A stretch of 64,000 nt of DNA from Marsupella aquatica (lineage: Eukaryota; Plantae; Marchantiophyta). The translations under genes were made by a program, and so were the position numbers. The stretch is from the NCBI GenBank assembly GCA_973895155.1, contig OZ316893.1:24541520-24605519 (forward strand), written 5' to 3'. The notes beneath the pieces were generated by a model. That model had not been told where the DNA came from, searched no databases, and was given only the letters and a program-made list of their open reading frames with translations. Positions 4,600-64,000 of the stretch are shown in pieces (the first letter of the stretch is position 1; each line of letters starts with the position of its first letter).

Positions 4600-4901
4600 C
4601 TCGGGGGTTTCACTTCCACAAAAATGGCATATCATGTGCGACGAAGGATAGGGTCATTTTATTGGTTGTAAGGGAAGACTTAAGAATTTTTGTAGAAGAA
4701 CAATACGGTCTTTTTAATTCAATTTTGAGACTTATAAGAACATTAGGGTCTTTTTAATCCAATTTTTAGAATATTCCAAGAATATTCTATTCTAACTTTA
4801 TAGGGGTTAAAAAATAATATTTTTTTCTTGCATTTTAGGGGGTCCGAGGCCTGAAAACGTCGCAGGTGATGGGGAGGTCCCCATATAGTGAGACCCCCGA
4901 G
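4600..4901 (+). mobile_element. MITE, CTCGGGGG-TIR family, copy 1
   Basis: TIRs CTCGGGGGTTTCACT / AGTGAGACCCCCGAG; 8-bp TSD CCAATTGT (4592-4599, 4902-4909). Confidence 0.93.
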
Positions 4902-5772
4902 CCAATTGTATTTCTGCCTCCCCTTCAATTGTAAGCTCCCCAAATAATACTTGCACCACCATCTCCCTATATTTCACCAAAGGAAACCGCTCACGATATG
5001 TTGTAGAGGTCTCATCCTTACAACTCTTCTTCAAAAACTCGATGTAATGATTAAGGAATGGGATGATTTCTTCAACCTTGCCTCATACATCCCCGGAGAT
5101 GGGTTTTGCAAACGGTTGACCTTCTGGTAAAATGAGAGCATTGGCGTTGGAATCAATTCTCCAAATGGACCTTCTAGTTGGAGGGTACCAAGGTTGTTTC
5201 ACATGTGCTTTGTATTGATATATTGGAACATTATCTCTCATAGAGAAAAGAAATGCCACTGGTTTTGAGTGACCCTCTATGTCTTTTACCTTGAAAGTTT
5301 TCAAAAACTTTTTGTAAGCTGCAACCTCTTGAATCAACCATGGGACAGGATGAATGCTTAATTTCACACTCCCAAACCTCAGCCATGAAGTGAACCCCAA
5401 GAGGGTAGAAACCTCATTGTACTTCACTTGGTTGGATACTTTTGAAAACAATGCATCGACATCCTCATGGGTGTGACCAACCATGAGAAATGACATCTGC
5501 ACTATTTCAAAAACCCCTCTACTAACAAGCCCCTCACTGCAAAATGCCATCACATACTGGTTTTTGTTATCTTTCCCTGAATTATCCATTTGCAAGGTCA
5601 GGTGCCTTGGCAATGGTTTGAAAGAGGTAGACATAGCCTTGGGATCAACACCAATGAAAGTTGTCATCCACCATATTTGATAACCCAATATCTTGGTCAT
5701 CTTTAGCTCCTTGAAATCTAGCAATTGAGACTTTTTTGGGTTCTAAGTAACCTACGAGAAATGCTTCAAAGT

Positions 5773-11481: not shown

Positions 11482-11730
11482 CTTGGGGGGGGTCACTTCC
11501 ATGGAAGTGGCATATCACGTGCGACGAAGTATAAGGTCATTTAAATGGTTTTGGTGGAAGACTTATTAAGTCTTCAATGGAAACATAGGGTTGTTTAATT
11601 GCAAAATGCATACGTGTCATCACATGATTGGTGTCGTACAACTTTATAGAAAGTGACTCAGGGGGGTTATAATAAATGACTCAAACTGTCGCACGTGATG
11701 TATGACCCTTCATATAGTGACCCCCCCGAG
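11482..11730 (+). mobile_element. MITE, CTCGGGGG-TIR family (subfamily B)
   Basis: TIRs CTTGGGGGGGGTCACT / AGTGACCCCCCCGAG; TSD AAGAGGCA on both sides. Confidence 0.92.
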
Positions 11731-12064: not shown

Positions 12065-12338
12065 CTCGGGGGTCTCACTATATGGATGCCTCCCAATCCC
12101 CTGCGACATTTTTAGGCATTAGACCCCTAAAATGTAAGAAAAAAAATATTTTTAAACCCCTATAAATTTGGAAATTTTGGTTAGAAAGACCCTAATGTTC
12201 TTATAAGTCTCAAAATCAAATTAAAAAAACCCTATTGTTCTTCTGCAAAAATTCTTAAGTCTTCCCTTCAAACCAAAAAATTGACCCTATCCTTTGTCGC
12301 ACATGATGTGCCATTTTTATGGAAGTGAAACCCCCAAG
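12065..12338 (-). mobile_element. MITE, CTCGGGGG-TIR family
   Basis: Reverse-oriented relative of 4600-4901; TSD AAAGTGAC on both sides. Confidence 0.92.
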
Positions 12339-13684: not shown

Positions 13685-16600
13685 TGTCGACTGTTGTAGA
13701 TTTCTCCAAGGAGGACTTTGCCGAGTACAACCTAACAACCATTGCAGAGCAGCTTCAGACCCTTCTAGATTCAGCGCATCACATCCATCACACTATTAAA
13801 CATAATTTACCCTCTTTGTTGATTGTTCAGGTTTTGCTCGAGATCATCTCGAGCTTCAATTGGTCCACTTGTATTGGGGTTCCTTGGATGCAGTTGAGGC
13901 TCGAGATCATCTTGAACCGATTGATATTTTCTACATTACTTTGCTTCAAAAGGTTTTGATATAAATTGATTTTGCATTTGATGTAAGTACGTGGCATGAG
14001 GCTCGAGATCGTCTCGAGCCAAATATGCATTCCCATAATCAATTGTTTTTCTAACATGTTATCTTGTCAAATTTCTTCGAGCTGGAAACTCTTATCCTTC
14101 AAAAGCGAACATCATATATCCAAAATATCCCACATTTTCTTCCTCTAGGGACTTCTGTACTCTCCAACTTGTTTTTGATCATAGACATCCAACCGAGTTA
14201 AGGATATCAGAAGTCAGTGGAGAAAGTGAATTTGAATCATTGTTGAATATGATGTTTGGATTTGATGGTGATTCTGATACTTCAGAATCAATCCTTAAAA
14301 TGCCAATAGCAGATCCATAACTGTCCAAATTTGCTTCCTCCAACATCTTCCTTACTCTCTAACTCGTTTTGATACACGAGGACAAACCGAGTTGGAGGGT
14401 TTTGAATATTATGGAAAAGGCAACATTTGGATTGTTTTTGAATCTGATATTTGTATTTGATGAGGATTCACAGAGTCAATGTTTTCCAATGACAAAATCT
14501 TATAAGGGAGAAAGTTAGGGAACTGTGAAGAGAGTGAGGGTTGCAAAGATCATTTTTGAATATGTGATTTGAATATGTTTTTGAATCTGATGATTGGAAA
14601 GGTAAGAATTTGTTGATAAATGGCTACATCTGGAAATCTCTATTTTTAGAGATCTTAGGGTCGAGACCGTCTCGAGCCAAATATATTCATAACTCTCTTC
14701 CATTATATTCCTCCGTGTTCCCTTGTCCAATTTCTTCAAGTTGGAAGGACTTCATGTCATATGCTTCAATTACTAATAGCATATCCAATATGATCCAAGC
14801 TTGCCTTCTGGACCACTTTCTTAGCCCTCCAACTCGTTTGTGAAGATGTGACAAACCACCAAGTTAGAGGGTTTGAATATGGTCGAATAGATGACGTTGG
14901 ATCATTCTTGAAAATGTTGTTGGCATTTGACTGATTTATGATATTGTAGAATCACATCTTCCAATGAAGAATCTGGCATTGGAACACGTTAGAATGCAGT
15001 GGACAAAAACCTCGACTAAGATTTTCTTTGATTTATGTTGAATATTGTTTAATACAGAGGGTGGCTCTAGATCATCTCGAGCCTCTTGTGGTTCCTGACT
15101 ATTGCTCTATTCCACTATATTTGCATGTGTTCCCTTTACAAATTTCTTTGGGTTGAAAAGACTTCATGTTGCATCCCCCAAAAAAATCTGGGAATGGAAC
15201 ATGTGAGAATACAGTACACAAAACCGTTGACTTGATCCTCCTAAAGCTGAGGGAAGCTCAAGATCATCTCGAGCCTCCTATTTGTTTCTCGGTTTTGAGT
15301 TCCATGTTTCCGACTATTGCTCCATTTTGGTTGTTCCAGGTACGAAATTGGGATCGCCTAATTTGGTAGTCAAAGATGAACATGCCATTGAGGTTTCCTG
15401 CCCTGGAAAAGGTGATGTAGGATTCTGTTGGGCCATTGAGCTTGCTGAAACTGAAGACATGGAAGGATCTGTTATTTGTGTGAAGACGAGGTCTCCATCT
15501 GTCGAACCTCTAGTGTGCAGCCTACTTGGGCCTGTTGTTTCTATTGTAATAAGTAACGGTAAGGAAATTGTCTTGACGGTGGAGAACCATGAGACTGGGA
15601 AGTGGGCTCTAATCTCGGGGGTCTCACTACATGGGGACCTCCCCATCACCTGCGACGTTTTTAGGCCTTGGACCCCCTAAAATGTAAGAAAAAAATATTA
15701 TTTTTTAACCCCTATAAAGTTGGAATATTCTTGGAATATTCCAAAAATTGGATTAAAAAGGCCCTAATGTTCTTATAAGTCTCAAAATTGAATTTAAAAG
15801 ACCCTATTGTTCTTCTACAAAAATTCTTAAGTTTTCCCTTACAACCAATAAAATGACCCTATCCTTCGTCGCACGTGATATGCCATTTTTGTGGAAGTGA
15901 AACCCCCAAGGCTCTAATTAGGCTTCACGCCAAAGACTACTCTTGCGATCTTAACATTGAACGTGCAGCCAAGAAACAACTGAGCGTGATATCAATGGGG
16001 TTCTTCCTCGAGGGTTTTACTACCAGTAATCTGCTTGAAGAGACACTTATATCTGGAGCAGATATAATTTTTGGATTCCTGTATTGTTGGAAGTATGGGT
16101 TTGATTGTGATGATGCATTCACGATTCCTTTCAGACATGTGGAAGGTTTTGAGACTAATGTCAGAATCCAAATTGGGGGAGTTTCAATCCATATCCCCTG
16201 CTTTTGTGTTTGGAACCGGAAAATTTGACGAGGATGAATTTAAAAAGTGGGTATTGTCTCATCAGAGATAAACAGGTAAATTGAAATTTGCAGCTTCAGG
16301 AGAAAAGACGTCCGGCTCGGACAAAAAGGAGGCAAAGGTGTCTCAAAAGAGGAAAAGGGTTGACAAACCCGAAAGCAAAGTGAAGAAGGCTCCACCTCCG
16401 AAAAAGTCCATACCGGTCAAGGTAGATCTCATTCCGGCATTTTCCTCAGGTGCGATTGCACATACCGATGATGACCGCACTCCCGGAGATGCTCCGGGTG
16501 AAAAGAGCATTAAAGAAGGAGCCAAAGTTCTTAAGGAAATTTTAGAGGAGTATTACACATTTGGCATAAATGAAACTTTTGACATTCCTGTCACTAGTAT

Positions 16601-25400: not shown

Positions 25401-26996
25401 CCTGGTTATAGCTTACCACTGAACCAATGCCACAACTGAATTAATTCCAGCTCTACTTCAATGTTGATCGGAAAAATCCACTCCTCTCCACGCTCAACAG
25501 TTCCAAGCCAGATAGGAACATTACAATGCCACAACAAATGCTCAGCTCAATGTAAAATGGTTTTGTGACAAGGAAGATTAAACACCCTCCAAAGGACACG
25601 TTTCTGTGTAAGCCTTATATCCTTTCCGCCTGTGAGAACCTCACTGGATTTTGAGCACATAAAACTCGTAACGAGTCAAATGCCCAGATGAACGTACTGT
25701 CATGGAAAGATATCTTTCGTAGGAGCATTGAAAACTCCATACAGAAACAAAGAGTTGCGTTCTCAAAATATCCTAAAAATTTGACTACACATCTCAAAAG
25801 TGATCGGGCTAACCAGTAATCTTATCACCTCAGACACTATTTTAGAGGGTCGATTTATTATGGCATTTCGAAACGGATCACAGAGCACTCACAAGTTGAT
25901 TGGTGAGCAACGACTTGCCAGCATTTGGGGCTCCAACAATTCCGACCCTAAGTGATCGCTGAAATTCCACTTCCACTCTCCCCTCTTCGTCATCTGCCTC
26001 GTCAAGTGCTGCCCTTAACAATGCCATAGCCTGGGCAGATGCACGCCTGTTCATCTCTTCATTTTGTACGACTGTCACATGCTGGAAGTGGTTTATGCTC
26101 TCTGATGGCGTCTGTACAATTTGTCCTCTTGATCCAGAGCCTTCCTCCTGCGTTTCTTCGAGATCTTCATCCTCCAACTCACGGAACGCTTCTTGCCATT
26201 CTGTCCCAATTTTGTCATCTGTCCCAATTTCGTCTTCTGTGTCCGTTTGAGATTCAAGTGCCACCTCTGTGGTACTGGCAGGTACCAAATCCTCCACAAC
26301 AGAAACAGAATTTGGAACCTCCAAGTCAACTGTGGTCTTTAGAGGAGTACCTGTGAACACTACTCTTGCACCCATCCGTCTCCTCTTAATAGTTGAAGTC
26401 TTCGTTTTCACAGTAGATCTCAGTTTTCTAATAGTGGCAACCTCCTCGGGCCTTTCAACCACATGCTTCTCCCCTTTCATCTCTGTATGAAGACTCCTCA
26501 GTGGTCCCCTGAAACTTATGACCACAGGCTTGAAGCCCCCGCTTACATCCATCTTCCTGATATATTTTCCCAATATACTGTCAGAAAGGGTTCCGGAACT
26601 CACTAATCTTTTGGCACCAGGCCGAGGATCTCTTGAAAATTGATCCTCTTTGACGGAAAGGCATGAAATCGTATCACATGCTCTCTCCACCATTTTAGTT
26701 CCAGCAGGGTTGGTAAAGGTGATGCCCTCACTAAAGCCATGATGTGGGTTGGCAATCTCAATCCGCCTCAAACCAGTAACTTGTCGTTGAAGAGGCTCCG
26801 AAATCCAATTCACAAAACGCTGGGAGCTAATTCTGGGAGAGCAATCCTCGAATGATTTATCCACCTCCACGTTTTCATATGCCGGAGTGAAAAGGTGAGC
26901 AGATGCGGTAGGGCTTACAGATACACTGAAACTCCGAGCCAAGAGATTGAAAGTAAGTCCACTGGTTAGAGCTACCCTGCGTCTCGTAGGCTGCAT
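22462..26996 (-). CDS. ERG: ERA-like GTPase, probably organellar (mitochondrial ERG type), 638 aa, 8 exons
   Basis: Exons 26996-25893, 25387-25298, 24955-24807, 24605-24447, 24193-24127, 23533-23435, 23002-22863, 22570-22462; all GT-AG and in frame (1917 nt). Motifs G1 GAPNAGKS, G2 KTNTT, G3 DTPG, G4 NKVD, G5 ISG, and KH domain ILVGKDGAVIG. Confidence 0.93.
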
Positions 26997-27349
26997 TTTG
27001 AAACAAATTGGATAGAGGAGAGGAGAGGACAGGTCGTCAAGCCATGAACAACACCAGCACTACCGGTGTGACAGGGAAGCCAATTTCGAGGGGATCAGAA
27101 GGTCGACTGATGGAATTCGAGAGAGAAAAAATCGAGAGAGACAAAATCGAGTTACACAAGATGCATTACTATGTCGAGCTGTTGCTCCTTTCGAAACGTA
27201 TGCCGTTACTGGTGGCATCGTGCTCCTGCTTGCGTTCGCCAGGAGAGGCTATCGATCAATGAATCAATTTCAGCATGACAAGATTGGGAAGAAGGCCGTC
27301 GCTCGAGAACCCTCGCCCTAAACCCCTTCCCCTGTTCCAAAACCCATCA

Positions 27350-41569: not shown

Positions 41570-43741
41570 CTAGCACGACCAAGCAGATGCAGTGAGAAGA
41601 AGGCGTTCTTGCCATCCCAGACAGATGGAGCCTTCTCTCTCGTGCAGTCTGTAGCCCTCGCATGGAGAAAATTGGAGCAGTAGTTTCGCCTGGCTGACAG
41701 CATGGGCACTGAGGGGAACTTGGTAAAATCCAGCCATCTCCATTCTCTGTTGCCAGAGATCAAACGTCTCGTGTCTTTCGACGCGTTCGTTTCCGTCGCT
41801 GACCACAATGTTCTTGATCTGCTGGGCGAAGAACAACTGCTCAACCTTCACGCGTTCCTCGTTCTGCTGAGGTAAAGATGCGTCCAGCGAGTCGAAGACA
41901 GCAGCATAGTAATGTAAAGCCTCCATGAATCGCCCCAGGAAAGACGGTGCGTTGTGGTTGGCCTCTTGCTCCACCAAAGTCACCACAACGGGCTTCAGTC
42001 TCCTACAAAGTAAATGCATGAACCGGTGAAGAGTCTCTCCGGAGGTGGGATTGAGTAATCGGTGTAGCTGTAGAACAGCATTCACTGCTAGGGCCTCTCC
42101 AAATCTGGGAGCAAGCACTTCCGGAGTGAGACTTTCAAGTTTCTCCTCAATCACGGACTGAAACTCGAACGGAACACCAAAACTCGCTGCAAAACTCGTC
42201 AACCTCCTTCCCGTCTCACGAACAACATTAGCGTGCTTCCCTACTCCCGTGATGCGGAGTTGCGGCGGGCCACCTTGCCGTGATGCCAACGCTTGTATCA
42301 AGGACGGCCACTGGAACCCTTGCATAATATCTAGATCTACGACATGTACAAACTTCTGCCCCTCGACCGCTTCCAGAATGGCCTGATTTGCCGTGAAATG
42401 TGCGAACTGGAAGTAAGGGGCCACCTTGTAAAGTGTTGTGAAGGCCGAGCAATATTGTTCTGTGGAAGGTTGAACCATGAGGTTAGAATACATGGAGGAA
42501 TCCTTGCTCACGATACGGGCAGCCAAACCTTCGGCGAAGTACGCTGCCACTCGCTGCATAGAATCTCCATAGAGAGACGCGCCTTGATATAGCTCTCCCA
42601 AAATCCGAGCCGCCGACTTTACGTTCAGTTGTGCTGTTGCGTCTGCACATTTTAGAAGTAGATGAACGAGCTGCAACCCGTGGGCTTCCAGGCCGGTGTC
42701 CAAGTCACGCAACAGCAAGCTTTGTTGATTCAGTGCCTCAGCATCCAGTCCTGTACATGTGAGAGGCTGAAACTTCGCTACTCTCTTAGCCTCCAGGATT
42801 TTGGCTGTCGGTTTGAGAGAGTCCAACTGCAGTGTGAGTTGAAACTCTGGCTCGTCCCCTCGATGTCTGACTGGACTGATACGCCCGCTGGAAGAATGTG
42901 TGCCAGCGTCTGCAGCACCACCATCAGCGCTATCAGCCCGACAAGGCAGTGAAGCAATCGTCACAGCATCTCGCATGTTAGACTGAGCACCGTCGTTCCC
43001 AGAGGCTGGATGAACCTTGGAGAATCTGAATGGAACGAACGTGCCAACGCGACCTAGCGTCGATGGTGATTGGACATCATGTTCCTGGGAAGCACTACAA
43101 CTTTCGGAATTCGTTGTCGACGAATTTGAGACTGGAAGACTCAAACTCAGCAAGTCCTTGTCAATCCCACCGGCAGCGAGGTTTTCCGTCCTTTGAATCT
43201 TCAGTGGATTTTGAGCAGCTTCAGCACTGGGCTGTGTGGACTCCGAGCTTGTGTGACTCCGTGACAACCTTAGTTCAGGGTTGAACAATTCGTCCGATTC
43301 CAGCATACTCGACGCAGACCTCTTTCTCGCTGAAACCTGGGAAGTATTATCATCGGCACGAGAAATCGGGACACTCAAAAGCATTCCCAATTGTTTCCTG
43401 TCATCGTCCCCACCCCGTCCAATTTTCCATTTCTTTTCGTCACGAGAATTTTCCACTTTGACCGTTGGTGTCTTGTTCCATAAAGTCATCTCAACCTTTC
43501 TTCGGTGAACCTGTGATCCCAGGTCATGAAGTCTCTGGGCAGTTTGAAGCAAGCCCACCATCTGTAATGGATTCGCTAGCTGTTGTTCCTGCTTCACTTC
43601 GTTTACCTTGAAGAAATTGGTGAGCCTGGGAGATTTGATCAATTCGGCGTGGTTTATGTTCCCGAGATCGGACTTCAGCCAAGGTTGTTCCTGGGCCTCC
43701 CCAGTGAACGAACCAATTATCCCGTGTACCAAAGACGGCAT
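41570..43741 (-). CDS. GRAS-family transcription factor (SCR/RAM1/SCLA-like clade), 723 aa, single coding exon
   Basis: LVHLLLKCA, GDSMQRVAAYF, PYFQFAHFTANQAILEA, VHVVD (VHIID), LRITG, EQEANHN, RFMEALHYY (PFYRE) and C-terminal SAW. Confidence 0.95.
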   Translation of the reverse strand: MPSLVHGIIGSFTGEAQEQPWLKSDLGNINHAELIKSPRLTNFFKVNEVKQEQQLANPLQMVGLLQTAQRLHDLGSQVHRRKVEMTLWNKTPTVKVENSRDEKKWKIGRGGDDDRKQLGMLLSVPISRADDNTSQVSARKRSASSMLESDELFNPELRLSRSHTSSESTQPSAEAAQNPLKIQRTENLAAGGIDKDLLSLSLPVSNSSTTNSESCSASQEHDVQSPSTLGRVGTFVPFRFSKVHPASGNDGAQSNMRDAVTIASLPCRADSADGGAADAGTHSSSGRISPVRHRGDEPEFQLTLQLDSLKPTAKILEAKRVAKFQPLTCTGLDAEALNQQSLLLRDLDTGLEAHGLQLVHLLLKCADATAQLNVKSAARILGELYQGASLYGDSMQRVAAYFAEGLAARIVSKDSSMYSNLMVQPSTEQYCSAFTTLYKVAPYFQFAHFTANQAILEAVEGQKFVHVVDLDIMQGFQWPSLIQALASRQGGPPQLRITGVGKHANVVRETGRRLTSFAASFGVPFEFQSVIEEKLESLTPEVLAPRFGEALAVNAVLQLHRLLNPTSGETLHRFMHLLCRRLKPVVVTLVEQEANHNAPSFLGRFMEALHYYAAVFDSLDASLPQQNEERVKVEQLFFAQQIKNIVVSDGNERVERHETFDLWQQRMEMAGFYQVPLSAHAVSQAKLLLQFSPCEGYRLHEREGSICLGWQERLLLTASAWSC

Positions 43742-44833
43742 CGGCGGCTCCCCGTCCTGCTCTCCAGGTGAGTCGGTGCAGGCAGCGAGGGAGTGTTTAC
43801 GAACGGGACTAACGGGTAAAAGGGATGCACCCTAGCTATAAATCGTTCAGCAACAGAACCTGAAGATCCGTTGAAGCAATACACCTGATTGTTCACCTTG
43901 AAATCTGGACAAATTGCCTTGCCTTGCCTTGCCTGGTCTACTCTAGCTTTGTCCTCAGAATGATACTACCACTGTGAAAAAAAGTGAGATCGAGATCATG
44001 AATAATTAAGTCCACCGAGCAGTGCCACGCTCGCAGCACTGTCCACCTGAGCGGCTGTACAAAGGTCTCTGCAGGGCCGGCAACATTGAGGAACGACAGC
44101 CGATAGCAGTCCAAAGGCAACGTCGACGTACAGGTTTTAATTGTCTGCAAACCTCCGTGGTTCCCACCTTCACATGGTCAACACACAAGCTGTGATAGAC
44201 GTGCAGTAGGTACTCCTCCGACCAAATTGTTCAAACGTCTCCCTCCTTCAATATCTTCTCCGTGCTCCGAGAATACAAAATCTAAGGGAAGCGAACTAAA
44301 TACGCGAGGAGCAAAGATTCCCAACGCTCAAGTCATCGTCACCTCAGGACATACGGATCCTATGCTTGTGGGATAGAGTGATCGAGAGAGGAGGCATCAT
44401 TCTGTCTAGCGGGAGGACCACGGAAGGTGAAGACACCTACATAGCTGGCCGTATGCTCCTGCAACAACAACGTGTGATTCACTGCTACTACTACTAAGTC
44501 AGTCAGCAAGTCAGCAGAAGCACGTCGAGCATGAATTCGCAGCAGCCACAGAACGATTCAGAGCTCGTCAACGAGCAATCTCCACGCACGAGAGAACAAC
44601 TCCAGCCTCTCTCAACACCTCGTCTCTCGCGATGCTCCAATTGGGTATTCCTTCAATTCCTTCATTCATTCATCCAAGCATCCATCCATCCCTCCCTCCC
44701 TCCCTCCAAATGAATAAAATGCACTTCACCAACTCAATTCAATCAATCCACCCAAAGCACCACTCCACGAGTCACGAGTCACGAGTCACGAGTCGGGCTT
44801 CAGCGAAAGAGAACAGCAATTGCGAACGTGCGG

Positions 44834-45649: not shown

Positions 45650-45985
45650 GGCTCTGTTGGGTGCACCAATTCCCAATTTGGGGCTCTGTTGGGTGCACCA
45701 ATTCTCAATTTGGGGACGTGGTTTACCTCTTAAACTCTGGTATTTGGCTAGAGGAATCATTCTCAATTTGGGACATGCTTTCCCTCTTAAACTCTGGTAT
45801 TTGGCTAGAGGAATCATTCTCAATTTGGGACATGCTTTCCCTCTTAAACTCTGGATTTGGCTAGAGGAATCATTTTCAATTTGGGAGGTGCTTTCCCTCT
45901 TAAACTCTGGAATTTGGCTAGAGGAATCGTTTTCAATTTGGGAGATGGTTTCCCTCTTAAACCCTGGAATTTGGCTAGAGGAATT
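45650..45985. repeat. 58-bp tandem repeat (~5 units) plus two shorter units
   Basis: TTCCCTCTTAAACTCTGG.ATTTGGCTAGAGGAATCATT.TCAATTTGGGA repeated head-to-tail. Confidence 0.92.
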
Positions 45986-47440
45986 ACCAACTGGCAATAG
46001 TGGAAATCCAGATGCTCACTGGAGAAAGAGAAAGTATGTATTTCACATGTGGGGATTCGGCATAAGATATGGCACCAGCTCTGACTTTGTATTAGAATTG
46101 CTTGGAAACATGGACTGGTGCTAGAGAAGAACGGTGGGCGCTGCAGATTGGAGCTGGTTAGTAGGATGATTCGGGACTGTGGTTGGCTTGAAGCATTATA
46201 TAGCCTGCAGGATGTTTTGCTTGCGATTACCTCTGATCCATAGTGGTTTTTTGATCCACCTTGATCTGTTAGTTTTCTTGTACTCATGCTCATTTTTTAT
46301 TTTGCTGTGAGCAGAGTATGGTAGTTAGTGGTATGTACTTAGCAGTCTTTGCGAATGGATTATCCTCCTGTGGATTTTTGTCAGAGTGCAGTAGTTCACA
46401 TCTTGGTTTTATGGCTTGATTTCTCCCTGCACTCTGGTTGAGTTGGCCCTCAGATTTGTTGGTCTCTTTTTAGTGTGTATTTGGTGTGTGACGGTGGTTT
46501 ATCACTGTTCCTTCCTTTGCTTTTTCCCTCTCTTTGGTAGATGTTGGCCTTGGCCCTTGTCTGGTCGGGCCTGTTACTCCCGGATTTATTGGGAATTTAC
46601 TTTTCTCATGAGTGAAATGTTTGGTTCAAGAAAAAAAAAATGGACACCTAAACAATCAGGGTACATAGGAAGGAAAGTTGCTGTGACAATAGGTCTGTGA
46701 CACATGTCACACGCGTCCCTCTCCACCAGCCCCCCACCACCGGCTCCTTCCCCTGCTACCCACCCCAGGCTAGCCTACTAGAATATGGCTTGGGTTTTTT
46801 ATTAGCTTACATTACTTGACTTTCCTCCTGCGCGTGACATGGTGCAGTCAACCATTTGATGCTGGTACATGCAAGTTTACACGTCCATCCAAGCATCTTT
46901 GATTTACCAGGCCCGTGACCAAAAAGGTTTGGTCACAAAAGTTGAACAGTTGCAAATGCCCACTCTTTAATATTGTACACTATATTTTGCAGAATAGTGC
47001 GTAAAAATTCACATGCGCAGAAAAAAGATCTGGAGGCATTTTCGAGCCCCCACCACAAAGCTGAAATATTTTTACATTTGTGATGGAACCCTATGGATGA
47101 ACCTTGGAATAATTTTCACATTTGTGATAAGTTACACAGAAACCCCATGGATGAAGGGGGCGAAAGGCACAACTCTCACAGAGGAGGGGGGTTGATTTTT
47201 GACCGATTGTGCTAATGCTAATATTTGGAGTATCTTTTGGTAGTTCAAATTCATTTTGTACTAGAGTCTCACACGTTGTGTATATTGCTATATTCTCTAA
47301 CCCCAGGATCTTCCCATTGTGGAAATTTTAGACCGCACCCTTGATCAAGGCTTTTCAACTCAAACAAAGGAAGCAAAATTTCCAAATACCTCCTTGTTGA
47401 GTCAAAGAGTAGGTTGACAGGTCACTTGAGTGGGGCCTGG

Positions 47441-50189: not shown

Positions 50190-53100
50190 AATTTTGTGTT
50201 TTGTCTTCGATGTCTTGGACATGGAAGACAAAACAGACCAACATAAATGACCAGTTTGGTGCTAAGGATTGGAAGTGGGCCCTAGACTGCCATGGGGCCT
50301 TGCATGAAGGTGGCAACCTCTCCACTAGGTGCGGGACACTATAATCATCATTGTCCAACCACTAGTTGTCCCATGAACACTTTGGAGCCATCTTTTTGCG
50401 TTTACTTAAAGCATGATAGAACCTTGGGGAAATCACTCCCAAGTCATACAGATTTGGAGTGATTTGCCAAAAGTGTCACCGTGGTTGAATACCATCATTA
50501 TCAATGGCAAATTGAGCCTTTTGTTTTGTCTCTCCAAGAAGTAAAGCAATGTCACCAATCAATGGAAGGTTGTTGTCCTTCTATGTAAGTGTGTGATTTT
50601 TGTGTTGATGTTTTGATGGGGATACTCCATTTTGCATATGAATAGTGTCGGGGCATTGTGAGTAGGTGTTGTAATCTTCATTGGGTTATTTTGGAGTAAT
50701 GTTGTGTCATTAGTGCCAATGACTACACTAAGGGTCATTTTGGGAGTCATTTTGGATGTCATTTGTACAAAATGACTGCATATGAGGTCATTAGACAGGT
50801 CCCTCATGATGTCATTATGTACCAGTAGAAATGACCCTTTTAGGTCTAGGAACTTTGGGTGAGCCCCAATGTGCCATGAGGCCCGCCATGGGGCCCTACA
50901 TGAAGGTGGTAACCCCTCCACTAGGTGCGGGACACTATACTCATCATTGTCCAACCACTAGTTGTTAGTTACATGAACATTTTGGACACATGTTTTCATG
51001 TTTACTTAAGGCATGATGCAACCTTGGGGAAATCATTCCCAAGTCGTACAACTTTGAGGTGATTTGCCAAAAGTGTCACCAAGGATTAATACCATCATTT
51101 GCAAAGGCAAATCGAGCCATTTGTTTTCTCTCTCCAAGAGGTAGCGCAACACCAATGGAAGGTTGTGGTCCTTCTATTTAACTATGTCATGTTTGTGATG
51201 GTGTTTGGATGGGGGATATGATATTTTGGGGATATTTTGCAAATAAATTGTGACGGGGCACTCTGGGAGGTAGTGTAATCTTTATTAGGTCATTTTGGAA
51301 CAAAGTTGTGTCATAAATGCCAATGACTACAAATAGGGTCATTGAAACTGTCATATAGGATGTCATATAGGTCAAATGACCAGACTTGTGGTCATTACAT
51401 TGGTCCCTTGTGGAGTCATTTAATTAGAAAAAGCTCAAATGACAAGGTTTGAGCTAGGGGCTGGAGGCGGGCCCCTAGAGTCATAAATGTGGTACTACAT
51501 AGAGCTGGGAACCTGCCTCCGGGTGCAGTACACTCTACTGTATACTATTCTCCATCCATTAGTTGTGGCATAAACCTGCACTTTGGGATATGGGGGTTCT
51601 CTTTTTGGAGGTACTTGTGCTTCATTGGGCCATTTGTGAACAATTCTACGTCAGAAATGTCAAATAATGACCTCCTATAATGTCATTGTGATTATGATAT
51701 GGGAGTACCAAATCACGCAAAATGGGGTCATTAGAGGAGTCCCTCATGCTGTCATTGAGGAAATAGGTTAAAATGACCCAACTGGCCAGGGCTAGGGGTA
51801 GAGGTGTTTAGAGTTTAGAGTGTAAACCTAAACCCTAAACAATGGAAAGGCTCTGTTTGGAGGGATGCAGTTCCTCATTGGCTCATTTGTGTGTTGTGTC
51901 ATAAATTCCATACAATGACAGAAAATGGGGTCATTGATGCTGAATACCCAACTATTTCATGCATTAACAATACCTAATGGCTATTTTGGTCCCAATTTTA
52001 GTCTTCCTTTGGCCCCCTCTTCTCCATGGTCCCATTCACCACAATATGGGTGAAATATGGATTAACTAGGGCGGTGAATGAGGACAATAGTCAGCAATAT
52101 TAATACTCCAAACAAACAAAGCAAAGGCCACAAATCAACTGCCTTACACCTGGGTTATTGCAAAATGAACATAGTGTAGGGAGTTTTTATCAAGTTCTTA
52201 ACGTACCAGGACGTACTAATAAATAAGCAAAAACAAAGCAAAAACATCATTAACTTGTTAAGGCAAGCTTAATACTAAATTTGCGAGTGTTAAACTTTAG
52301 TGTCTCCTTTGCTAACCTTTGCCACAAAGTTTCAATAATAATGAGGAACAAGAGGGAAATTTAATTGTTTGTGACTCAGTTGGTAGATGGACAAAATGTT
52401 TCTCTACAAATAAAGCTTTGTTTGGAGATATTCCACTTTACACAACATCTCTACTATCTGAAATGCTTGCACTTATGTAGAGAACCCATTCCCTGGGCCC
52501 CAACAAAGATACTGAAGCCCCCCTGCACGCATGAAGGTAATTTATATTTTATTGGCCTGTAATAATCATAATGCATTTTTTTTGAATGAAGGGATTATAT
52601 TAACCTTGGATTAGTATATTACAATACAAAAGCCTTATTATATCCATTCAAAATTTTATTTTTATTTCTAAGGAAAGGTGTGACATAGTCAACAAAAACA
52701 TGTGTCATTTTTATATTGGTCCACATGTCATTGCATAAAAGTAGGGGTTATGTAACTCAAAATATAAAATTAAATATTTTTGTAAGCTATTGAATCTACA
52801 CTCTGGGCATAGTGGAGGTTCACGGGCCGTCTGGGGTAGGTTTCACGGGTGGGGTGGGGCGTGGGCACGTTCTTGGTGAGAGGGATTTGAATCCTCCCAC
52901 GTGACCTCGCTTCCCTCCTGCACATTGTCCCTCATGCCCATCTTTAGCAGCCCCTGACCGCCATAGCTTTCCGTTGGAGAGTTGTGAGAGCGTGGGGAGG
53001 GATTGATGGTGGTTTGCGATGCTCTCGATCTAGATTTGTGGAAGGTCTGAAAAGAACAAGCAGATGTAGCTGTACGTGAACATTGCGCACAGTGGATTGG

Positions 53101-56100: not shown

Positions 56101-58085
56101 GCTGGACTTGACAGATTGGTCTTCTAAGGTATGCACTTGTGCTCTATGGATCATTGGGGGTACTACCTATCTTTGTCAGAAGTGGAGGGTGGAATTTTGA
56201 CCATTAACAATCACTTGGCGAGCTTCCATTTTTCACAGTTGCTAAGGAAGGGGACTCGACTGAACAAGCAAGTTGTAAGAGCTCTACCACCCAGGGCTCT
56301 GCCCAACTATGTTATAAGTTGGTATGTTTTAATCTTAGCAGTAAATGGTTATCACAAAATCAATAGTTCTACAGTTATCTAATATCATGCTTTCTTATTT
56401 GGTTGTTGTCCTTGGAGGTGGCTGTCACTACTTCAATTCAAGATGTAACTGGGTTTTTGAATCACATCGTAGCTACATCCACCAGCATGAAGTGTCTGAC
56501 CCCTCTGTAAGTCTCTGATCCCGCTTCCTCATGTGGTATATTTTGTGGCACCTAGTTTTTATGGTTTATGGTGACTGCAAAGAAAAATTCATGATCAGCT
56601 ACGAACTTACAAGTTCTGTGTGTGACATATAGGATTGCCTTTGCTTCAATACACATCTTGCTGTGATCAAATTCTTGTTAGTTTGACAGTGAGAATGTTG
56701 TGTTGGCTTGTGAGTCATTTACAGACCCCACATTCAAAAGAAGAGATCAGTGCCATTGGGGTTGTGAAATTGGATGTTGATGAGTTGAAAGGCACTATGA
56801 AGGAGTTGGCAAGCATGATGACTACATGGATGGTCCTTTCTTCTGAGTGCGTGTGATTGAAGTGTTTGTAGATGTGGCATTGTCATTTGCTAATGCTGGG
56901 GAGAACCAGTCTAAGTTATCTCATGTGAAGGGGATGAATGCCCTGTGGAACTCTAGATTGCTCAAGAAGCAGTAGAAGCAGCCATGGGCCAAGAAACACT
57001 AGACATGATAGAAGTAGGTTTTGTAGAATGAGAATGACAACTTTGTTTTTCTACACACATTCAGAGTTGTTAGGTATTTCAGATTGCAGCACTTGATATA
57101 CATCTAATAATATTGTGTATGCTTTTTCTCAATGTCTGTTTTCTTCATAAATTTGCATTGAGTTGAATAACTATTGTGTTCAATAACTATTGTGGGACTT
57201 AAGAATGTATCTTGTATGAATATCAATTGGATTCGTTAGGTATAGAATGTCTCTTTAGTGTTTCATTCAGCAAATCTATTGAATGACTTTGTAGTGTATG
57301 ATTCTTGAATGACATGAATTTTTGTCCAATATGACCATTTAAATTTGTATAACTCCAAGTCATTGAATACATGACTTGAATGACATATAAAATGACTGAT
57401 CTAATGGTCATCATGAACTTCTGTAATTGCATCCAATATATGACCCACCTCAAGTCATTAAAGACATAGCCTTACTGACATATAAAATGACTGATCTTAT
57501 GGTCATTATAGACGTATATAAATGTGTCCAATATGACTCTTTTCAAGTCATTCCAGACATGTCATTAATGACCAGTGTGTATCTCTACGCGTTTCTTCCC
57601 AATTTAACCATGTGTCTATATATGACTTGTCTATAATGTAGTCATTTTGGACACGTCCAAAATGACCCAAATTTATTGCCACATGGTTAAAATCCTTTGA
57701 GCCACATGTCACTCCTTGATTTGTTACATATTGTGCGTCATTTTGGACAAGTCCAAAATGACAAATGATCTTTGTTTTTTAATTGCCACGTGGCATTATA
57801 TAATTGGGTACGGATACAATCGACGGTGAACGGTGATTGACCGTTGACGGTGGTTTTTTGGTCATTTCAGACCGTTCACCATTTATGACCAAATCATAAA
57901 TTAAGTCATTTCAGACGGTATAAAATGACCACATGTTTTTTGCGTCATTTGTCCGAAAGGATCGTGACCAAAATGTCCGTTGTGACGCGTCTGGAAAGAC
58001 GAGAATGACTGCGTCATTGTTTTGTTGAAAAGACCATATAAATAGTCATTATTGCGGTCATAAAGAACCTTGTTTTGTACTAGTG
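50190..58085 (+). mobile_element. Non-autonomous CACTA element; right end intact, left TIR not found
   Basis: Ends ...TTTTGTACTAGTG at 58085. GTCAT/ATGAC subterminal repeats at ~57300-58070 and ~50700-51950. ~590-bp internal duplication (~50275 vs ~50860). Left boundary approximate. Confidence 0.65.
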
Positions 58086-60060
58086 TACTGTGGTAACCCC
58101 AATCACAAGGCTAATGAATGTGATATTGTTGCTGAGGACCTATCTTGTGATTTTTGCGGGAAAGTGGGCCACTTGGAGGCAGTTTGTTTTGCCAAATTCC
58201 CAGAGAGGAAGCAGCTATGACAACAGGCCACTCATCCTACTCCTGTTTCCACTCCCCCACCAGCTAGGAGGGCTCCTACTGCATCAGTTGCTCCTCCTTC
58301 CAGTGGCAAAGCACCCAATGCCAAAAAATTGCCCAAGCAGCAACAGAAGCAACCAGCTCAGAAGGAGGCTCACAACGCACAGGCAACTCAACTCCAGTCT
58401 CTGACTCATGAGGTTGAGTCCCTACGTGCCCAACTTGCCAACATCAAAGGCAAGTCAACTGCCTCTACTGGTCCTTCTCAATCGGCTGGTCACGTGCAAC
58501 CCATTCCTGGCCCAGGCACCACTGACAGTTCAGCATCTCTACCCCGCTCTTTCTATGGCTTGCCATTTGATGCTCATATGGGTGAGTGTGTGCTGTCCAC
58601 TGCTACACAGCCTGGCCTTACAGCAGAATTTTCAGATTCATTCTGCCCTTCCTATTTTGCTTACCAGCAGGCTAGTGCAGCCTCCCGTATTGCTCCCACA
58701 CGCCGCATTGTACAGGCTGATGGTCTTGCTGCCGGTCCTATGACTAGAGCCAGGGGAGCTCGGGCTGTCTTGCCCCAATCTTTTCAGCCACTCACACTTG
58801 CAGAAGAGCACACCTTGTTGGCGAGGGGGGAGGGAGCTGCAGCTACATCCATTCCACCACCAGGTGCTGCTAACATTTCACAGGGAGTTGTTTCTCCTGA
58901 GCTGCTTGAGCATTTCACCTCCGGTATGGCACAAAGGATTCTTACAACTCCACTTTTCAGTTGCCATGATTTACAACTGGATGCTAGAGCTGTCATCAGA
59001 GCGCTAGAGGGCTCACTGCATTCTTCATCGGCCCCTGTGACACCGGTTTTGGAGGTCCAATCTCATGTACATACTGGACCTTCTTCTTCTCCATTACATA
59101 TTTCCACTGGTTTGGCTATCCTAGTACCAATTTCCAGTGGTAGAGATGACAGTATTGTTGCAAATTGTGTGACCAGAGTTACATTTGATTCTGGTCATGC
59201 TGCCCCATCTTTCCTGACTATGTTGTTGAATGGAAAGACCGTGGACACTAACTCCCTTCACAAAGTACCTCATCTTTTTTTCCAAAAGTGGTGCCTAGCG
59301 ACAGGACTTCAGTTTCCACCACCATTGCCATTGTTGACAACAGGAATTCAGCGGTCAAGTTGGAGGGTCACACTCCTCAGGTGGTCATGCTAGACACAGG
59401 TGCTCAACCAGTGATATTGGGCATTCAGTTTGCCAAGATGATGGGGGATTGCTAACTGATCATTTACAGCAATCCAAGTGGCACATTCGGACTGCTAGTG
59501 GCACTGTGGAGGATGTGCTGGGTGAGAGTTCTACTTTACTCACTCTCACTTTTAATGGAGGTACAGATCAGGAACTGCATTTCCTAGTTAGATGTTTGGT
59601 TACCAATGCCACTACGTATGATGTGCTCATTGGCCAGGAGGCTTTGTTCCCACCAGGTTTTACCATTGACAACTGGCATGAGCATGCATACTACAGAGTT
59701 GATTGGCATACGGATGGCTCACACTTGGGCTACATTCCACTTGATTTGCATGGTGCTCATACACCTATGGCTCACCATTGTGTTTTGAAAGCAGTGCACA
59801 CGGCTACCTATGTCAACCACCCATTGCAGGATTGGATTGAGGAGAATGATGATGAGGTGGCTGCTGCACATGCTGCTGCATGTATAGCAGCACTTTCCAT
59901 CAATGTGGATCATCAACCAGAGGTGGTACAATGGCTCCAAGCACCCCATGGACCTTTGGTGGCTGCATTGCGCAAATTTGAGGACCTTGGGCAGCACAAT
60001 GGACAACCAATAGCCCCAATCTTGAGCGCACCAGTTACATGGACTCCTCCTCCGGATGGC

Positions 60061-61340
60061 CTTACATTGCTTGAGCTTTTTGGAGGCCTGGAAGCTCTCC
60101 TACAGTCTGGCATGGTGGTGAAGCAGTACATCTACGTGGACATTGATCCAGGTGCAAGGCAAGTGGCTGAATCCCATCTGCTGGAATTTTTAGAGTGATT
60201 TCCCCAGCAGTTTCCACACAGTGTATGGAAGTCTGCATTTTCTTTCTTCCCTCCAGATATCCAGATTGTCCAGCACCGACACTTAACCCTTCTTGGCTCC
60301 CTTGATTTGATCATAGCTGGTTGGGAATGCCAAGGGTTTTCAGCTGCTGGTCACGGTGTTGGACTGCATGATTCTCGTTCTGGCCTTTTCACAGCATTGG
60401 TTCAGATTCTCACTTGGGCTCAATCCCTTTATCATGTTGTTGGCTATATACCCGGCTATATATCATTGAGAATACTCCATCTCAGTTTGACCAGCGTCCA
60501 CAGGTCAAAGAGGATTTCAGTGTGGTCCAGCATTACTTGGGACCACCCCTTCTCATTGATGCAGTGCACTGTGGTTCTTATGCACATCGTCTTCGTAACT
60601 TTTGGACTAACCTTGCACCACCTTCCTTGTTGGAGTTAGCTCTTCACCACACATCCAGGGACACTAACCTCACGGTGGACCAGATTTTGGATCCTGATAG
60701 TTCTTGCCAACCAGTTACACGGCAAGAGCCAGCACCTTGGTATCCAGCCAATACCATTGGACAGCCCCATGTTGTTTGGCCTACATTTGTGTCCTTTCCA
60801 GGTGCACATGCTTTTTAGGGTGATGGTCCTGGCCTGTTTTACCGACATCTCGGGGGGGTCACTTCCACGGAAGTGACACATCACGTGCGACGAAGTATAG
60901 GCCCATTTAAATGGGTGTGGCGGAAGACTTCCAAAGTTTGGTGGAAGAACACATAGGGCATGTTTTATTGATTGGTCGACTTTAAAGAACACATAGGCCT
61001 ATTTAATTGCAAAAAATACTTTCTATAAAGTTTTTAGGGGTTTTTTAATAAAAAATGACAAAATTTTAAGAAAGAAAGGGCTTTGCAAAAAAAAAATTTC
61101 ACTTTAAAGTTAGGGGGGTCAAACCCTAAAACGTCGCACGCGATGTATGGCCCTCCATATAGTGACCCCCCCGAGACCGACATTCTACCAGTACATGGGA
61201 TGAACCTAGTCCTGAGGAGAGAGAACGGGCTATGGGCTTCCAACCCGGTACTACATGCCACACCAAAATCACCAAGCTGGCCAAAAATGCTTTACTTGGC
61301 AGGGTAATGGATCTTAATGCTCTCACTTGGCTTCTGGTCA
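60061..61340 (+). pseudogene. C5 cytosine DNA methyltransferase domain within the retrotransposon polyprotein
   Basis: Motifs in canonical order: I LELFGG (60070), II VDID, IV DLIIAGWECQGFS (60304-60342), V DSRSGLF, VI IIENT (60468), VIII HRLRNFW (60585), IX ERERAMGF (61217), X LLGRVMD (61292). A MITE is inserted between VIII and IX. Confidence 0.88.
60849..61175 (+). mobile_element. MITE, CTCGGGGG-TIR family (subfamily B), inside the MTase domain
   Basis: TIRs CTCGGGGGGGTCACT / AGTGACCCCCCCGAG; TSD ACCGACAT. Confidence 0.93.
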
Positions 61341-61679
61341 CTTGCATCCTTTTTCAGATGTACATTCATCCAGCATCAGGAGTTCCAACCTACCACTCCA
61401 TGGTGCTGCTACATGGCATCCAGACCAAGTGCACTTACCTCTATTCAACACTCACCGCTTCAGTCCAAGTGTTGGGGGGGAGGAGGTCCCTTGTAACGTG
61501 GCTGATATTATTTCTGAGTTTCATGGTGTGGATCAGACCAGAGCAACAGATACAACAGGCCTTGGAGAGGCCTCATCACCTTATCAGCAGCATGCTAGCA
61601 GCTTGGATAGTGGAGAGGCTAGCACTTCTGGCTCTTCAAGCACGAGTACATCAGGTCCTATTCCTAGTGTTGCCAACTA

Positions 61680-63301
61680 CACATTCATCATGGGAAACCA
61701 CCTGAGTAAAAGACAGAAGGACCAGCTGCTGAATTTGCTCCTCAAGCATGAGAAAGTGTTTGCTTTCTCTATGAAGGACTTGGGTAAGTGCAAGACCATG
61801 CAGTTCTCCATTGAGTTGGCTGATAAAACACCTATCTTCAGGCGGAGACATCGTTTGAGTAAGCATGAGTGGCAGCTGGTGGATGAGAGTTGCCAAGAGT
61901 TATATGAAGCTGGTCTTATTCAGCCATCTACATCAAATTTTGCAGCAGCTACAGTGATGCCAGCAAAGAAGGATTCTAGTGGATTGTGGACAGAGAAGCG
62001 CATGTGTGGGGACTACAGGCCACTGAACCTGGTCACACCCCAGGACAGGTACCCCATGCCACGGCCAGAGGAGCTATTTGACAGCATTGGAGACTCAGAC
62101 ATCTTCACTCTTGTGGATCTAAGGCAAGGCTTTAACCAGATTTTGCTGCTTGCAAAGGACCGCAAGAAAACAGCTTTCCATGGTAGTAACCAACTATGGG
62201 AGTGGTTGGTGATGCCATTTGGCTTGAAGAATGCGCCCATATTCTTTCAAAGAGTCATGGACCAGGTTCTTCAAGGTGCTGAGTTTCTGAAATGCTACAT
62301 TGATGATGTGTTGGTCCACAGCAAAGGATTTGACCAGCATCTACTTGACCTCGAGGAGCTATTCATGAGGCTTAAGAAGGTGAACCTAAAGATACACCCC
62401 AAGAAGTGTGAATTTGTTGTCAGATCAGTAGTATACCTTGGGCACCGCATTCTTCCAAATGGAACCATGGCTCACTGGGCCAAGGTGGTATCCATCAGAT
62501 TGGAAATGCCCACTCCTACCGATGTTCACACTTTGAGGAGTTTTATTGGGTTGTGCAATTACTATCGGATCTACATCAAATATTTCAGTACCATTGCACA
62601 CCCATTGTATGCTTTGTTGAAAAAGAATGTGACTTGGACATGGAGTACAGATGCTGAGGCAGCATTTGCCACTTTGAAGGAGAAGCTCTCAGAATACCCG
62701 GTGCTGAGAAGACCTGATTTCAGCAAGGTCTTTGTGTTACACACAGATTGGAGTGCCCTTGGGATTGGTGCCATGCATTCTGGGCCAGCATGATGAGGAA
62801 GGTAAAGAGTACGTCATTGCCTATGCATCCAGGAGCAACAATCAGGCAGAGAGTCATTATTCTTCTTATGAGGGTGAATGCCTTGTTGTTGTGTGGGCTG
62901 TCATACATTACAGGCCCTACCTCTATGGGACCAGGTTTGTTCTCTACACCGACCACCAGCCCTTGAAGTGGTTGATGACCAACGACAAGCTTACTGGCAA
63001 GCTTGCTCGTTGGGCGCTCATACTCCAGGAGTATGATTTTGAGGTAATTCATAGGCCTGGTGTGACACATCAAAATGCTGACACTATGTCCCGCAGCCCT
63101 TTGATAGCCTCTGATGATTCCTCAGATGCACGGCAGGATTTTGACCAGGTTTCCATCCTGCCTACATTTCATGTATCTTCCTATCTTGCTTTGCTGCCAT
63201 GCTACATTGTTGACCAACCTGTGGTGGACATATGGGAGGACAGCGACACTCTGAGATTTTTGCAGCATGGGGAGTACCCCATACATGTTACTGCAACCTA
63301 G
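61680..63301 (+). pseudogene. pol: Reverse transcriptase and RNase H of the Gypsy pol
   Basis: ORFs 61327-62793 and 62732-63301 are joined by a frameshift at ~62773; YIDD active site. Confidence 0.93.
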
Positions 63302-63368
63302 AGAGACCGAATTCAGCAAAGGTCCAAGCGTTACTTGTGGAAGGGAGATCATCTCGTGCGTTGCATGC

Positions 63369-63664
63369 CTCGGGGGTCTCACTTCCACAAAAATGGCATA
63401 TCACGTGCGACGAAGGATAGGGTCATTTTATTGGTTCTAAGGGAAGACTTAAGAATTTTTGTAGAAGAACAATAGGGTCTTTTAAATTCAATTTTGAGAC
63501 TTATAAGAATATAAAGGTCTTTTTAATCCAAATTTTAGAATATTCCAAGAATATTCCAACTTTATAGGGGTTAAAAAATAATTTTTTTTCTTACATTTTA
63601 GGGGGTCCGAGGCCTAAAAACGTCGCAGGCGATGGGGAGGTCCCCATATAGTGAGACCCCCGAG
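63369..63664 (+). mobile_element. MITE, CTCGGGGG-TIR family, between RNase H and integrase
   Basis: TIRs CTCGGGGGTCTCACT / AGTGAGACCCCCGAG; TSD TTGCATGC; near-identical to 4600-4901. Confidence 0.94.
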
Positions 63665-64000
63665 TTGCATGCCAGACAGGGAAGTGGTGGTTCCACCCAT
63701 TCATGAGAGGGTTGGCCTTATCCGTAAGGTACATTCTGAGCTTGGTCATTTTGGCGTTAAGAGACTTACAGCCTCTTGGTCCCTCATTATCATTGGAGAG
63801 GCATGCATGGCCAGGTTCGAGATGTTATTGCCCGGTGTGAATAGTGTGATAGAGTGAGGACTTCTTTGACATCTCGGCAACCCACACTTCATCCACTCCC
63901 TATTCAGGGCATGTTTTTATCGCTGGTCATGTGATTTGGCTGGAGAATTACCCCTCACATCTCGGGGTAATCTCTACATCATGATCATGATAGAGCATTT

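Follow-up and report, generated by a model that had tools for sequence, protein, structure and literature searches.

Why would a Gypsy retrotransposon carry a cytosine DNA methyltransferase (DNMT) between its protease and its reverse transcriptase (RT), and does the domain belong to the element at all? These questions are raised by a copy at the end of a 64,000-nucleotide stretch of the Marsupella aquatica genome (contig OZ316893.1), hereafter the window. When scanning the window for motifs, a C5-methyltransferase series was found on the + strand between protease and RT. The ten motifs of the DNMT lie in linear, unpermuted order; among them are motifs I (60070-60087), II (60133-60147), IV (GWECQ, 60319-60333), VI (ENTP, 60465-60479), VIII (HRLRNFWTN, 60582-60611), IX (ERERAMGF, 61217-61240) and X (LLGRVMD, 61292-61312), and the catalytic Cys, the motif VI Glu and the motif VIII Arg are all present. 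The domain is broken into pieces on the + strand: motifs I-V (60055..60450), with a damaged motif I and a stop at 60196-60198; motifs VI and VIII with the target-recognition region (60459..60848; 76-77% identity to the relatives P0001/P0005), preceded by a frameshift near 60445 and containing a stop at 60816-60818; and motifs IX-X (61184..61340; 76-80% identity to P0005/P0141), which align with the C-terminal motifs of DNMT3A in profile alignments. The frame 59338-60198, read with X at the stop, matched PF00145 (26.2 bits with a cut-off of 22, E 6.7e-6), for which the relatives scored 28-58 bits. The pieces with motifs VI-VIII and IX-X alone matched no Pfam family.

A sequence-only reading of this DNA had described the motif series as collinear and on one strand from protease to RT, had placed motif I in the ORF of the protease C-terminus, and had proposed searches with PF00145 and RVT_1. 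Order and strand were reproduced, motif I was found in one frame (59338-60198) with the C-terminal half of the protease, and both Pfam families were matched. Its motif list needs amending in two places: motif IV is non-canonical, reading W-E-C within G-W-E-C-Q instead of the usual P-C (the Pro-Cys dipeptide is absent), and motif I lacks four residues of the relatives through a 12-base loss.

The rest of the copy lies on the same strand. A gag remnant (58086..59279; 47% identity to P0001 292-696) consists of zinc knuckles and a long low-complexity spacer, with two knuckles at 58089-58187 (weak zf-CCHC match, E 0.009) and a single stop at 58218-58220. It is followed by an aspartic protease (59270..59720, end approximate) with the motif LDTGA at 59390-59404, frameshifted near 59276 and 59443; the Pfam match on this fragment is weak (E 0.02), and the protease of intact relatives matches gag-asp_proteas/Asp_protease_2. 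Downstream of the DNMT and a frameshift near 61387 are a linker and a Ty3/Gypsy RT (61405..62775; RVT_1, E 4.3e-29; 85% identity to the P0141 RT) with YIDD at 62296-62307, then RNase H and a linker to the integrase (62725..63367; RT_RNaseH, E 4.5e-31), carrying a frameshift near 62772 and a stop at 63299-63301. The integrase zinc-binding region (63665..64000, H2C2 from about 63665) is cut by the window end; it matched Integrase_H2C2 weakly (E 0.03), the P0148 integrase by tblastn (E 1.6e-11) and the integrase region of locus L004 with 78% DNA identity.

Two MITEs of one family interrupt the copy. MITE 1 (60849..61175) lies in the DNMT, has perfect terminal inverted repeats of ~15 bp and is flanked by an 8-bp target duplication (60841-60848 / 61176-61183); sister copies in the public runs X1, X2, X3, X4 and X5 join 60840 to 61176. 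MITE 2 (63369..63664) has 15-bp perfect terminal inverted repeats and an 8-bp target duplication, and copies 93-95% identical to it occur elsewhere in the window (4597-4901, 15614-15912). The 5′ part of the retroelement is severed at 58085 by the end of a DNA transposon (57340..58085) with dense short subterminal repeats, which we take to be CACTA-like from its terminal motif (...CTAGTG) alone. No second end of it was found in the window, and the first 291 aa of P0001, the 5′ part of gag, had no match anywhere in the window; contigs of sister copies continue with unlike sequence before 58086-58089 as loose ends. Stops, frameshifts, the motif I deletion, two MITEs and the lost 5′ end all bear out the earlier description of the copy as decayed. 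Judged from these lesions, the window copy is dead and cannot make the enzyme. Sister copies in public runs are without its lesions inside protease-DNMT-RT.

The question whether the DNMT belongs to pol was answered by the relatives. In P0005, gag, protease, DNMT and the start of RT share one frame of 1315 aa; P0141 joins DNMT, RT and RNase H in one frame, and P0293 holds the whole domain set in one. Among non-redundant related loci with room, 41 of 43 have the protease upstream of the DNMT and 46 of 47 have RT downstream of it, so that the claim of an integral pol domain, with no neighbouring insertion, was upheld. The order protease-RT-RNase H-integrase is present, the integrase of the relatives is of the rve type, and a PHD finger is found at its end in 22/24 non-redundant loci with room. 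The fragmented window frame could be explained by a methyltransferase fragment that was captured as a single event, or lodged by nested insertion, in this copy; nothing else speaks for such an origin. Against it stand the single-frame fusions in other organisms, DNMT spacing that is fixed across 80 related loci, and the grouping of the same elements in the DNMT and RT trees; in addition, no joint skipping the DNMT was seen among the best-supported 15 of 71 in sister copies. We therefore give this explanation practically no credence, and a one-off insertion is ruled out by P0005 and P0141. All related loci were collected via the DNMT, so sisters that lack it are invisible among them. Named kin of the family come from Calypogeia, Sphagnum, Closterium and Klebsormidium, and in a large further group that includes Scenedesmus the DNMT lies between RNase H and integrase. 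An Atlas search with the GRAS gene gave nothing narrower than Streptophyta. The family looks high-copy. IMG/VR contained no relative of P0005, and no unrelated RT usable as an outgroup was found in the window or flanking the 80 loci.

The sequence-only reading had also expected paired LTRs. Instead of two identical flanking LTRs, full-length relatives end in split repeats of the form A-coding-B-A-B: both repeat pairs were found in 8/20 self-compared related loci, and B-A-B downstream in 13/59 non-redundant related loci, most others being too short to show it. No LTR is visible in the window copy because it is cut at 58085 and by the window end, and because its relatives carry split repeats. 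The relatives have TG...CA ends and a purine run ahead of the 3′ repeats. Among 11 two-ended related loci, five had an exact 4-bp target duplication, one had a duplication with one mismatch and five were unresolved or unmatched; in three further related loci an exact 4-bp duplication was recognised by eye. Such 4-bp target duplications show insertion by a predicted DDE integrase. A DIRS element, with tyrosine recombinase and no target duplication, was rejected on the rve-type integrase and the 4-bp duplications of the relatives.

Rankings of profiles and structures put the domain nearest to DNMT3, ahead of DRM, DNMT2 and bacterial enzymes. DNMT3A/B were the top profile and fold matches; the family profile placed DNMT3A first (E 1.4e-24), followed by DRM (4e-15) and, lower, HhaI (4e-9). 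For the intact domain of P0005, the structural model (pLDDT 96.8) matched DNMT3A in Foldseek (E 9e-19) and superposed on it with Z 29.8 and an rmsd of 2.5 Å over 270 residues, compared to Z 24.9 for HhaI. Since the 80 loci were scanned with motif IV and VIII patterns, which biases their motif counts, conservation was taken from 88 close homologues and a 65-sequence alignment (A5). In the latter the catalytic Cys, the motif VI Glu and the first motif VIII Arg are present in 65/65 relatives and the second motif VIII Arg in 63/65; the SAM-binding glycines are near-invariant across deeply diverged members. The residue before the catalytic Cys is Glu in 81/88 close homologues, none of which has P-C, and in the 65 aligned, deeply diverged relatives it is Glu in 39 and Pro in 24. 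We rejected W-E-C as a bryophyte novelty because distant members often have it as well. In comparisons of the window with the loci, dN was 0.25 for the DNMT, 0.20 for the protease, 0.17 for RNase H, 0.12 for RT and 0.44 for the linker, with dS saturated in 47/59 comparisons. From these alignments the DNMT is under purifying selection.

What does the domain do? We consider it probable that the window holds a decayed Ty3/Gypsy copy from a family whose single gag-pol carries a DNMT3-like domain between protease and RT, and that this domain methylates CG in the element's own new cDNA. The domain would be made with Pol and packaged alongside RT and integrase, which would make the cDNA its most available substrate; CG sites would be methylated before or at integration, and the PHD finger at the C-terminus of the integrase may recognise host chromatin where the element inserts. 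An insert that arrives already methylated might resemble the DNA of the host, or be silent from the outset. Self-methylation at CG is our inference. In its favour, third-position C before G is depleted in the window copy (17/247), in contrast to CHG (45/91) and CHH (269/545), but this CG-only depletion is non-specific because it also occurs in an Era-like exon of the host within the window (14/64 CG compared to 11/21 CHG). In peat-moss-type loci both CG and CHG are depleted, the pattern expected from silencing by the host. The Pro missing before the catalytic Cys and the yeast result on the Klebsormidium enzyme (below) likewise count against self-methylation.

Chromatin is a de novo substrate of DNMT3s, and together with the PHD finger at the integrase end this would fit an active enzyme guided by that finger mainly to host DNA, at insertion flanks or in competing elements, and not to cDNA; we think this quite unlikely, since a Pol-embedded domain would be expected to share the particle with the cDNA. 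Unlikely, too, is that the domain is kept for another role, namely DNA binding or shielding, modification of element RNA, or that of a decoy or poorly active DNMT3. W-E-C in place of P-C across the bryophyte clade would fit such a role, as would two points in de Mendoza 2018 (PMC5890265): in yeast no methylation was obtained with the Klebsormidium enzyme, a result that the authors call inconclusive, and RNA methylation is raised for one retro-DNMT class. However, the catalytic residues described above are near-invariant with either Pro or Glu before the Cys, and the modelled fold is predicted to be a complete DNMT3 catalytic domain. Beyond self-methylation, we tentatively propose a wider picture, which is possible but doubtful as a whole: DNMT3-bearing Gypsy elements may form an old green-plant superfamily (chlorophytes, Klebsormidium, Zygnematophyceae, liverworts, peat mosses) with the DNMT in two Pol positions, Glu tolerated for Pro at the active site, DDE integration starting from split repeats in which an internal end junction reads CA-nn-TG, and CG methylation of own cDNA that left the CG-only erosion of the window copy.

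The role of a captured DNMT for a retrotransposon has been a standing question since 2018. With an abundant family in land plants whose domains are intact in nature, and with hundreds of diverged algal relatives, there is material for testing self-methylation and for asking whether bryophyte genomes receive de novo CG methylation from such elements. Some of the DNMT3 genes counted in annotations of bryophytes and algae may be transposon copies, and with split repeats at their ends these elements would escape LTR finders.

The suspected link to algal DNMT-retrotransposons was supported: as far as alignment and trees can tell, the window element is a probable land-plant relative of KnitGypsy-Dnmt3 of Klebsormidium nitens. 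In the K. nitens protein GAQ93235.1 (P0302), zinc knuckle, protease and DNMT follow one another as in the window, to which the protein aligns with 25% identity over 352 aa (E 2e-23) and 34% over 122 aa. In midpoint-rooted trees of element DNMTs without a cellular outgroup, a branch placed the window DNMT together with P0302 and Closterium P0295, with a FastTree support of 99 but a lower, unstarred IQ-TREE support of 89/78. According to PMC5890265, KnitGypsy-Dnmt3 is a low-copy element with an intronless, unpermuted Dnmt3-type domain in a Gypsy Pol, DIRS-like split repeats and purifying selection. The window family shares the domain in the Gypsy Pol frame, the split repeats and the purifying selection, with domain order compared via P0302; it differs in its land-plant host and apparent high copy number, and motif IV is W-E-C here and F-P-C in P0302. 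SymbioDIRS-Dnmt3 of Symbiodinium, in the same paper a tyrosine-recombinase DIRS element and an independent capture, likewise has a DNMT3-type domain in a retroelement Pol and A-coding-B-A-B repeats, whereas here we find a Gypsy RT, a DDE integrase and 4-bp target duplications. SymbioDIRS-Dnmt3 was shown there to methylate CG de novo, and related dinoflagellate retro-DNMT3s do so in yeast (PMC5890265), a point in favour of self-methylation. The domain resembles cellular DNMT3A/B in its best profile and structure matches and linear motif order, DRM being permuted, but it shares only 19-25% identity with DNMT3A/B and plant DNMT3/DRM, has no PWWP/ADD or plant accessory domains and sits inside a polyprotein. 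Gag-protease-RT-RNase H-integrase, TG...CA ends, the purine run before the 3′ repeats and a short target duplication are those of canonical Ty3/Gypsy elements, from which the family departs by the added DNMT and PHD domains and by split repeats in place of two full LTRs. Our literature search returned no report of such elements in land plants. The DNMT-bearing Gypsy element as a kind has been in print since 2018, and its occurrence in land plants is added here.

The retroelement copy at 58086-64000 was read in three frames, all on the forward strand, as gag, protease, methyltransferase, RT, RNase H and the start of an integrase. The gag zinc knuckles, the aspartic protease (LDTGA, 59390-59404) and the integrase start matched Pfam weakly, while RT and RNase H gave strong matches. 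Frame reading recovered methyltransferase motifs I, II, IV, VI, VIII, IX and X. When ten pieces of the copy were scanned against Pfam, the frame with the protease C-terminus and motifs I-V, its stop read as X, matched PF00145 at 26.2 bits (cut-off 22); the two later methyltransferase pieces, scanned alone, matched no Pfam family. The C5-methyltransferase motif series that the sequence-only reading had placed between protease and RT on a single strand is thus borne out. The copy had also been described as decayed, and it is indeed dead: it carries four stops (58218, 60196, 60816 and 63299), five frameshifts (near 59276, 59443, 60445, 61387 and 62772) and two MITEs (60849-61175 and 63369-63664) whose inverted ends are perfect and which are flanked by 8-bp target duplications, four residues of motif I are missing, and a CACTA-like end at 58085 truncates its 5' part. 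Sister copies, seen as public-run contigs aligned to the window, lack the 60849-61175 MITE and the 60196 stop, retain the residues lost from motif I and are free of the frameshifting indels, so these lesions are specific to the window copy.

To judge from its relatives, the DNMT3-like methyltransferase (DNMT) domain is an integral part of Pol, as had been proposed, and no neighbouring insertion. In the related proteins P0001 and P0006 (1214 aa) a single frame spans gag, protease and methyltransferase; that of P0005 (1315 aa) extends further, into RT, and P0141 joins DNMT, RT and RNase H. A metagenome scan returned at least 600 stretches, of which 385 were confirmed and 80 loci kept; these show Gag, zinc knuckle, protease, DNMT, RT, RNase H, integrase and PHD at near-constant spacing. 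Near-identical loci were merged to 59, and L057, a locus in two fragments, was left out of positional counts. In these counts, where DNMT-less sisters are invisible because loci were selected via the DNMT, protease lay upstream in 41 of 43 loci with room, and RT and PHD lay downstream in 46 of 47 and 22 of 24, respectively. No joint skipping the DNMT domain was found in the best-supported 15 of 71 in the sister-copy contigs.

A 65-sequence profile of the domain ranked DNMT3A, DNMT3C and DNMT3B at the top (E 1e-24 to 9e-18), with DRM second (4e-15 to 5e-11), then HhaI (4e-9) and, in last place, DNMT2. For the intact P0005 domain, the AlphaFold model (pLDDT 96.8, pTM 0.93) matched DNMT3A-DNA with a Foldseek E of 8.8e-19 and a Z of 29.8 (270 residues superposed at rmsd 2.5 A); CpG methylase 4dkj and HhaI scored Z 26.2 and 24.9. 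The catalytic Cys, the motif VI Glu and the first motif VIII Arg are present in all 65 alignment rows. The residue before this Cys is Glu in 81 of 88 close homologues and the canonical Pro in none, while motif IV reads GWPCQ in 10, GWECQ in 9 and otherwise in 2 of 21 distant homologues; we identify the Glu-Cys pair, from these alignments, as a new active-site variant. Between window and loci, dN of the DNMT (0.25) resembles that of protease (0.20) and RNase H (0.17), exceeds that of RT (0.12) and is far under that of the linker (0.44). Synonymous divergence was saturated in 47 of 59 window-versus-locus comparisons, and dN/dS was about 0.09 in the remainder, the comparisons being non-independent since all share the window branch.

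We consider it most likely, with moderate confidence, that the DNMT domain accompanies Pol and would methylate CG in new cDNA, because of the conserved chemistry, the selection, the CG-only erosion and the CG methylation activity of dinoflagellate retro-DNMT3s in yeast, given in PMC5890265. According to the same paper, the Klebsormidium enzyme showed no activity in yeast, which speaks against cDNA methylation. Third-position C in the window copy stands before G in 17 of 247 cases, as compared to 45 of 91 for CHG and 269 of 545 for CHH. Two adjacent transposase-like frames have lost both CG and CHG (small counts). In the 59 related loci both are also reduced (CG 769/4576, CHG 311/1539), and host silencing explains this double loss. 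Since a host exon within the window shares the CG-only pattern and the 59 loci lose CHG too, base composition is a hint only.

This exon (25878-27059, reverse strand) has an MMR_HSR1 P-loop start and belongs to a GTPase that we take to be Era-like; its CG-only depletion suggests that the host methylates CG in gene bodies. A long open frame at 41570-43831 (reverse; PF03514, E 9e-134) belongs to a host gene for a GRAS transcription factor. Transposase-like fragments depleted in CG and CHG lie on the reverse strand at 5083-5742 (DUF7869, E 6e-35) and 9698-11492 (no Pfam match). Two long GC-rich forward frames at 6045-8632 (498 and 279 aa) are undepleted (CpG o/e 0.90), had no convincing Pfam family and are probably a young mobile element. 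The MITEs belong to a presumably hAT-like family with inverted ends CTCGGGGG..., 8-bp target duplications and at least six copies or fragments in the window (4597-4901, 11486-11604, 12065-12338, 15614-15912, 60849-61175 and 63369-63664). A 57-bp tandem array (5 copies) lies at 45685-46024, and a duplicated unit of about 600 bp at 50289-51940 is rich in short repeats that also occur in the CACTA-like end (57340-58085).

A profile search gave 647 matches among 8000 scored candidates; among the 120 matches listed, four carry a species name, two being from Calypogeia fissa and one each from Sphagnum magellanicum and S. compactum. A tree of 39 rows placed the window copy inside an 18-row clade with Calypogeia and Sphagnum proteins (support 100/100), outside the Sphagnum group and with its shortest path to a Calypogeia protein. 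Taken with the GRAS gene, this indicates a land plant as host, probably a bryophyte. A wider HMMER search yielded 554 representatives (E up to 1e-30). Among 173 proteins the DNMT lay after protease or before RT in 16 and after RT/RNase H or before integrase in 108, and 49 were DNMT-only fragments. The ten relatives checked included Klebsormidium nitens and Closterium sp. (protease-DNMT) and a Scenedesmus sp. (RT-RNase H-DNMT-integrase-PHD). DNMT trees, like all the trees here midpoint-rooted without outgroup, separated window, Klebsormidium and Closterium from the Scenedesmus-type group, with FastTree support of 99 (122 rows) and IQ-TREE support of only 89/78 (32 rows). In the RT tree, the three protease-DNMT-RT elements with RT clustered together (support 99). 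The far larger Gypsy group P0147-P0312, which includes the Scenedesmus pol, has a related DNMT3-like domain placed after RNase H and before integrase, often accompanied by a PHD finger and occasionally by a G-patch; we found no paper on such elements. One protein, P0146 (protease, DNMT and RT start, with about 670 unassigned residues between protease and DNMT), clusters by its DNMT with this group despite its pre-RT position, possibly reflecting a separate relocation within Pol.

Self-comparison of 20 long loci showed, in eight, a repeat A (about 300 bp) before gag and a B-A-B arrangement (B about 180 bp) after pol. The elements start with TG and end with CA, and the first B is preceded by a run of G. 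An exact 4-bp target duplication was present at 5 of 11 two-ended loci and one with a mismatch at another, five being unresolved or unmatched; we read this as new evidence for 4-bp duplications on insertion of split-repeat elements. The internal B-A joint is CA-nn-TG in 12 of 13 cases, resembles joined integrase ends (3' ends of L004, L024, L029, L040, L049, L067, L076 and L078) and would template both integrase ends. By eye, the sequence after the first A in those eight loci has no TGG start; TGG usually begins the tRNA primer site.

For earlier links between DNMT and RT, PMC5890265 (2018) cites Iyer et al. 2011. Retrotransposon DNMT3s 'in streptophytes and dinoflagellates' are mentioned in PMC12344493, with reference to PMC5890265. 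No report of land-plant or chlorophyte elements of this type was found in the literature searched, outside which most subscription papers lie. The range indicated by our sequences is new: it takes in liverworts, peat mosses and Zygnematophyceae, together with a large second architecture to which Scenedesmus belongs. The Klebsormidium nitens element KnitGypsy-Dnmt3 combines DIRS-like repeats with Gypsy domains (Fig. 4 legend, PMC5890265), a layout as in the related loci. We identify the window element as a real, integral land-plant member of this known type.
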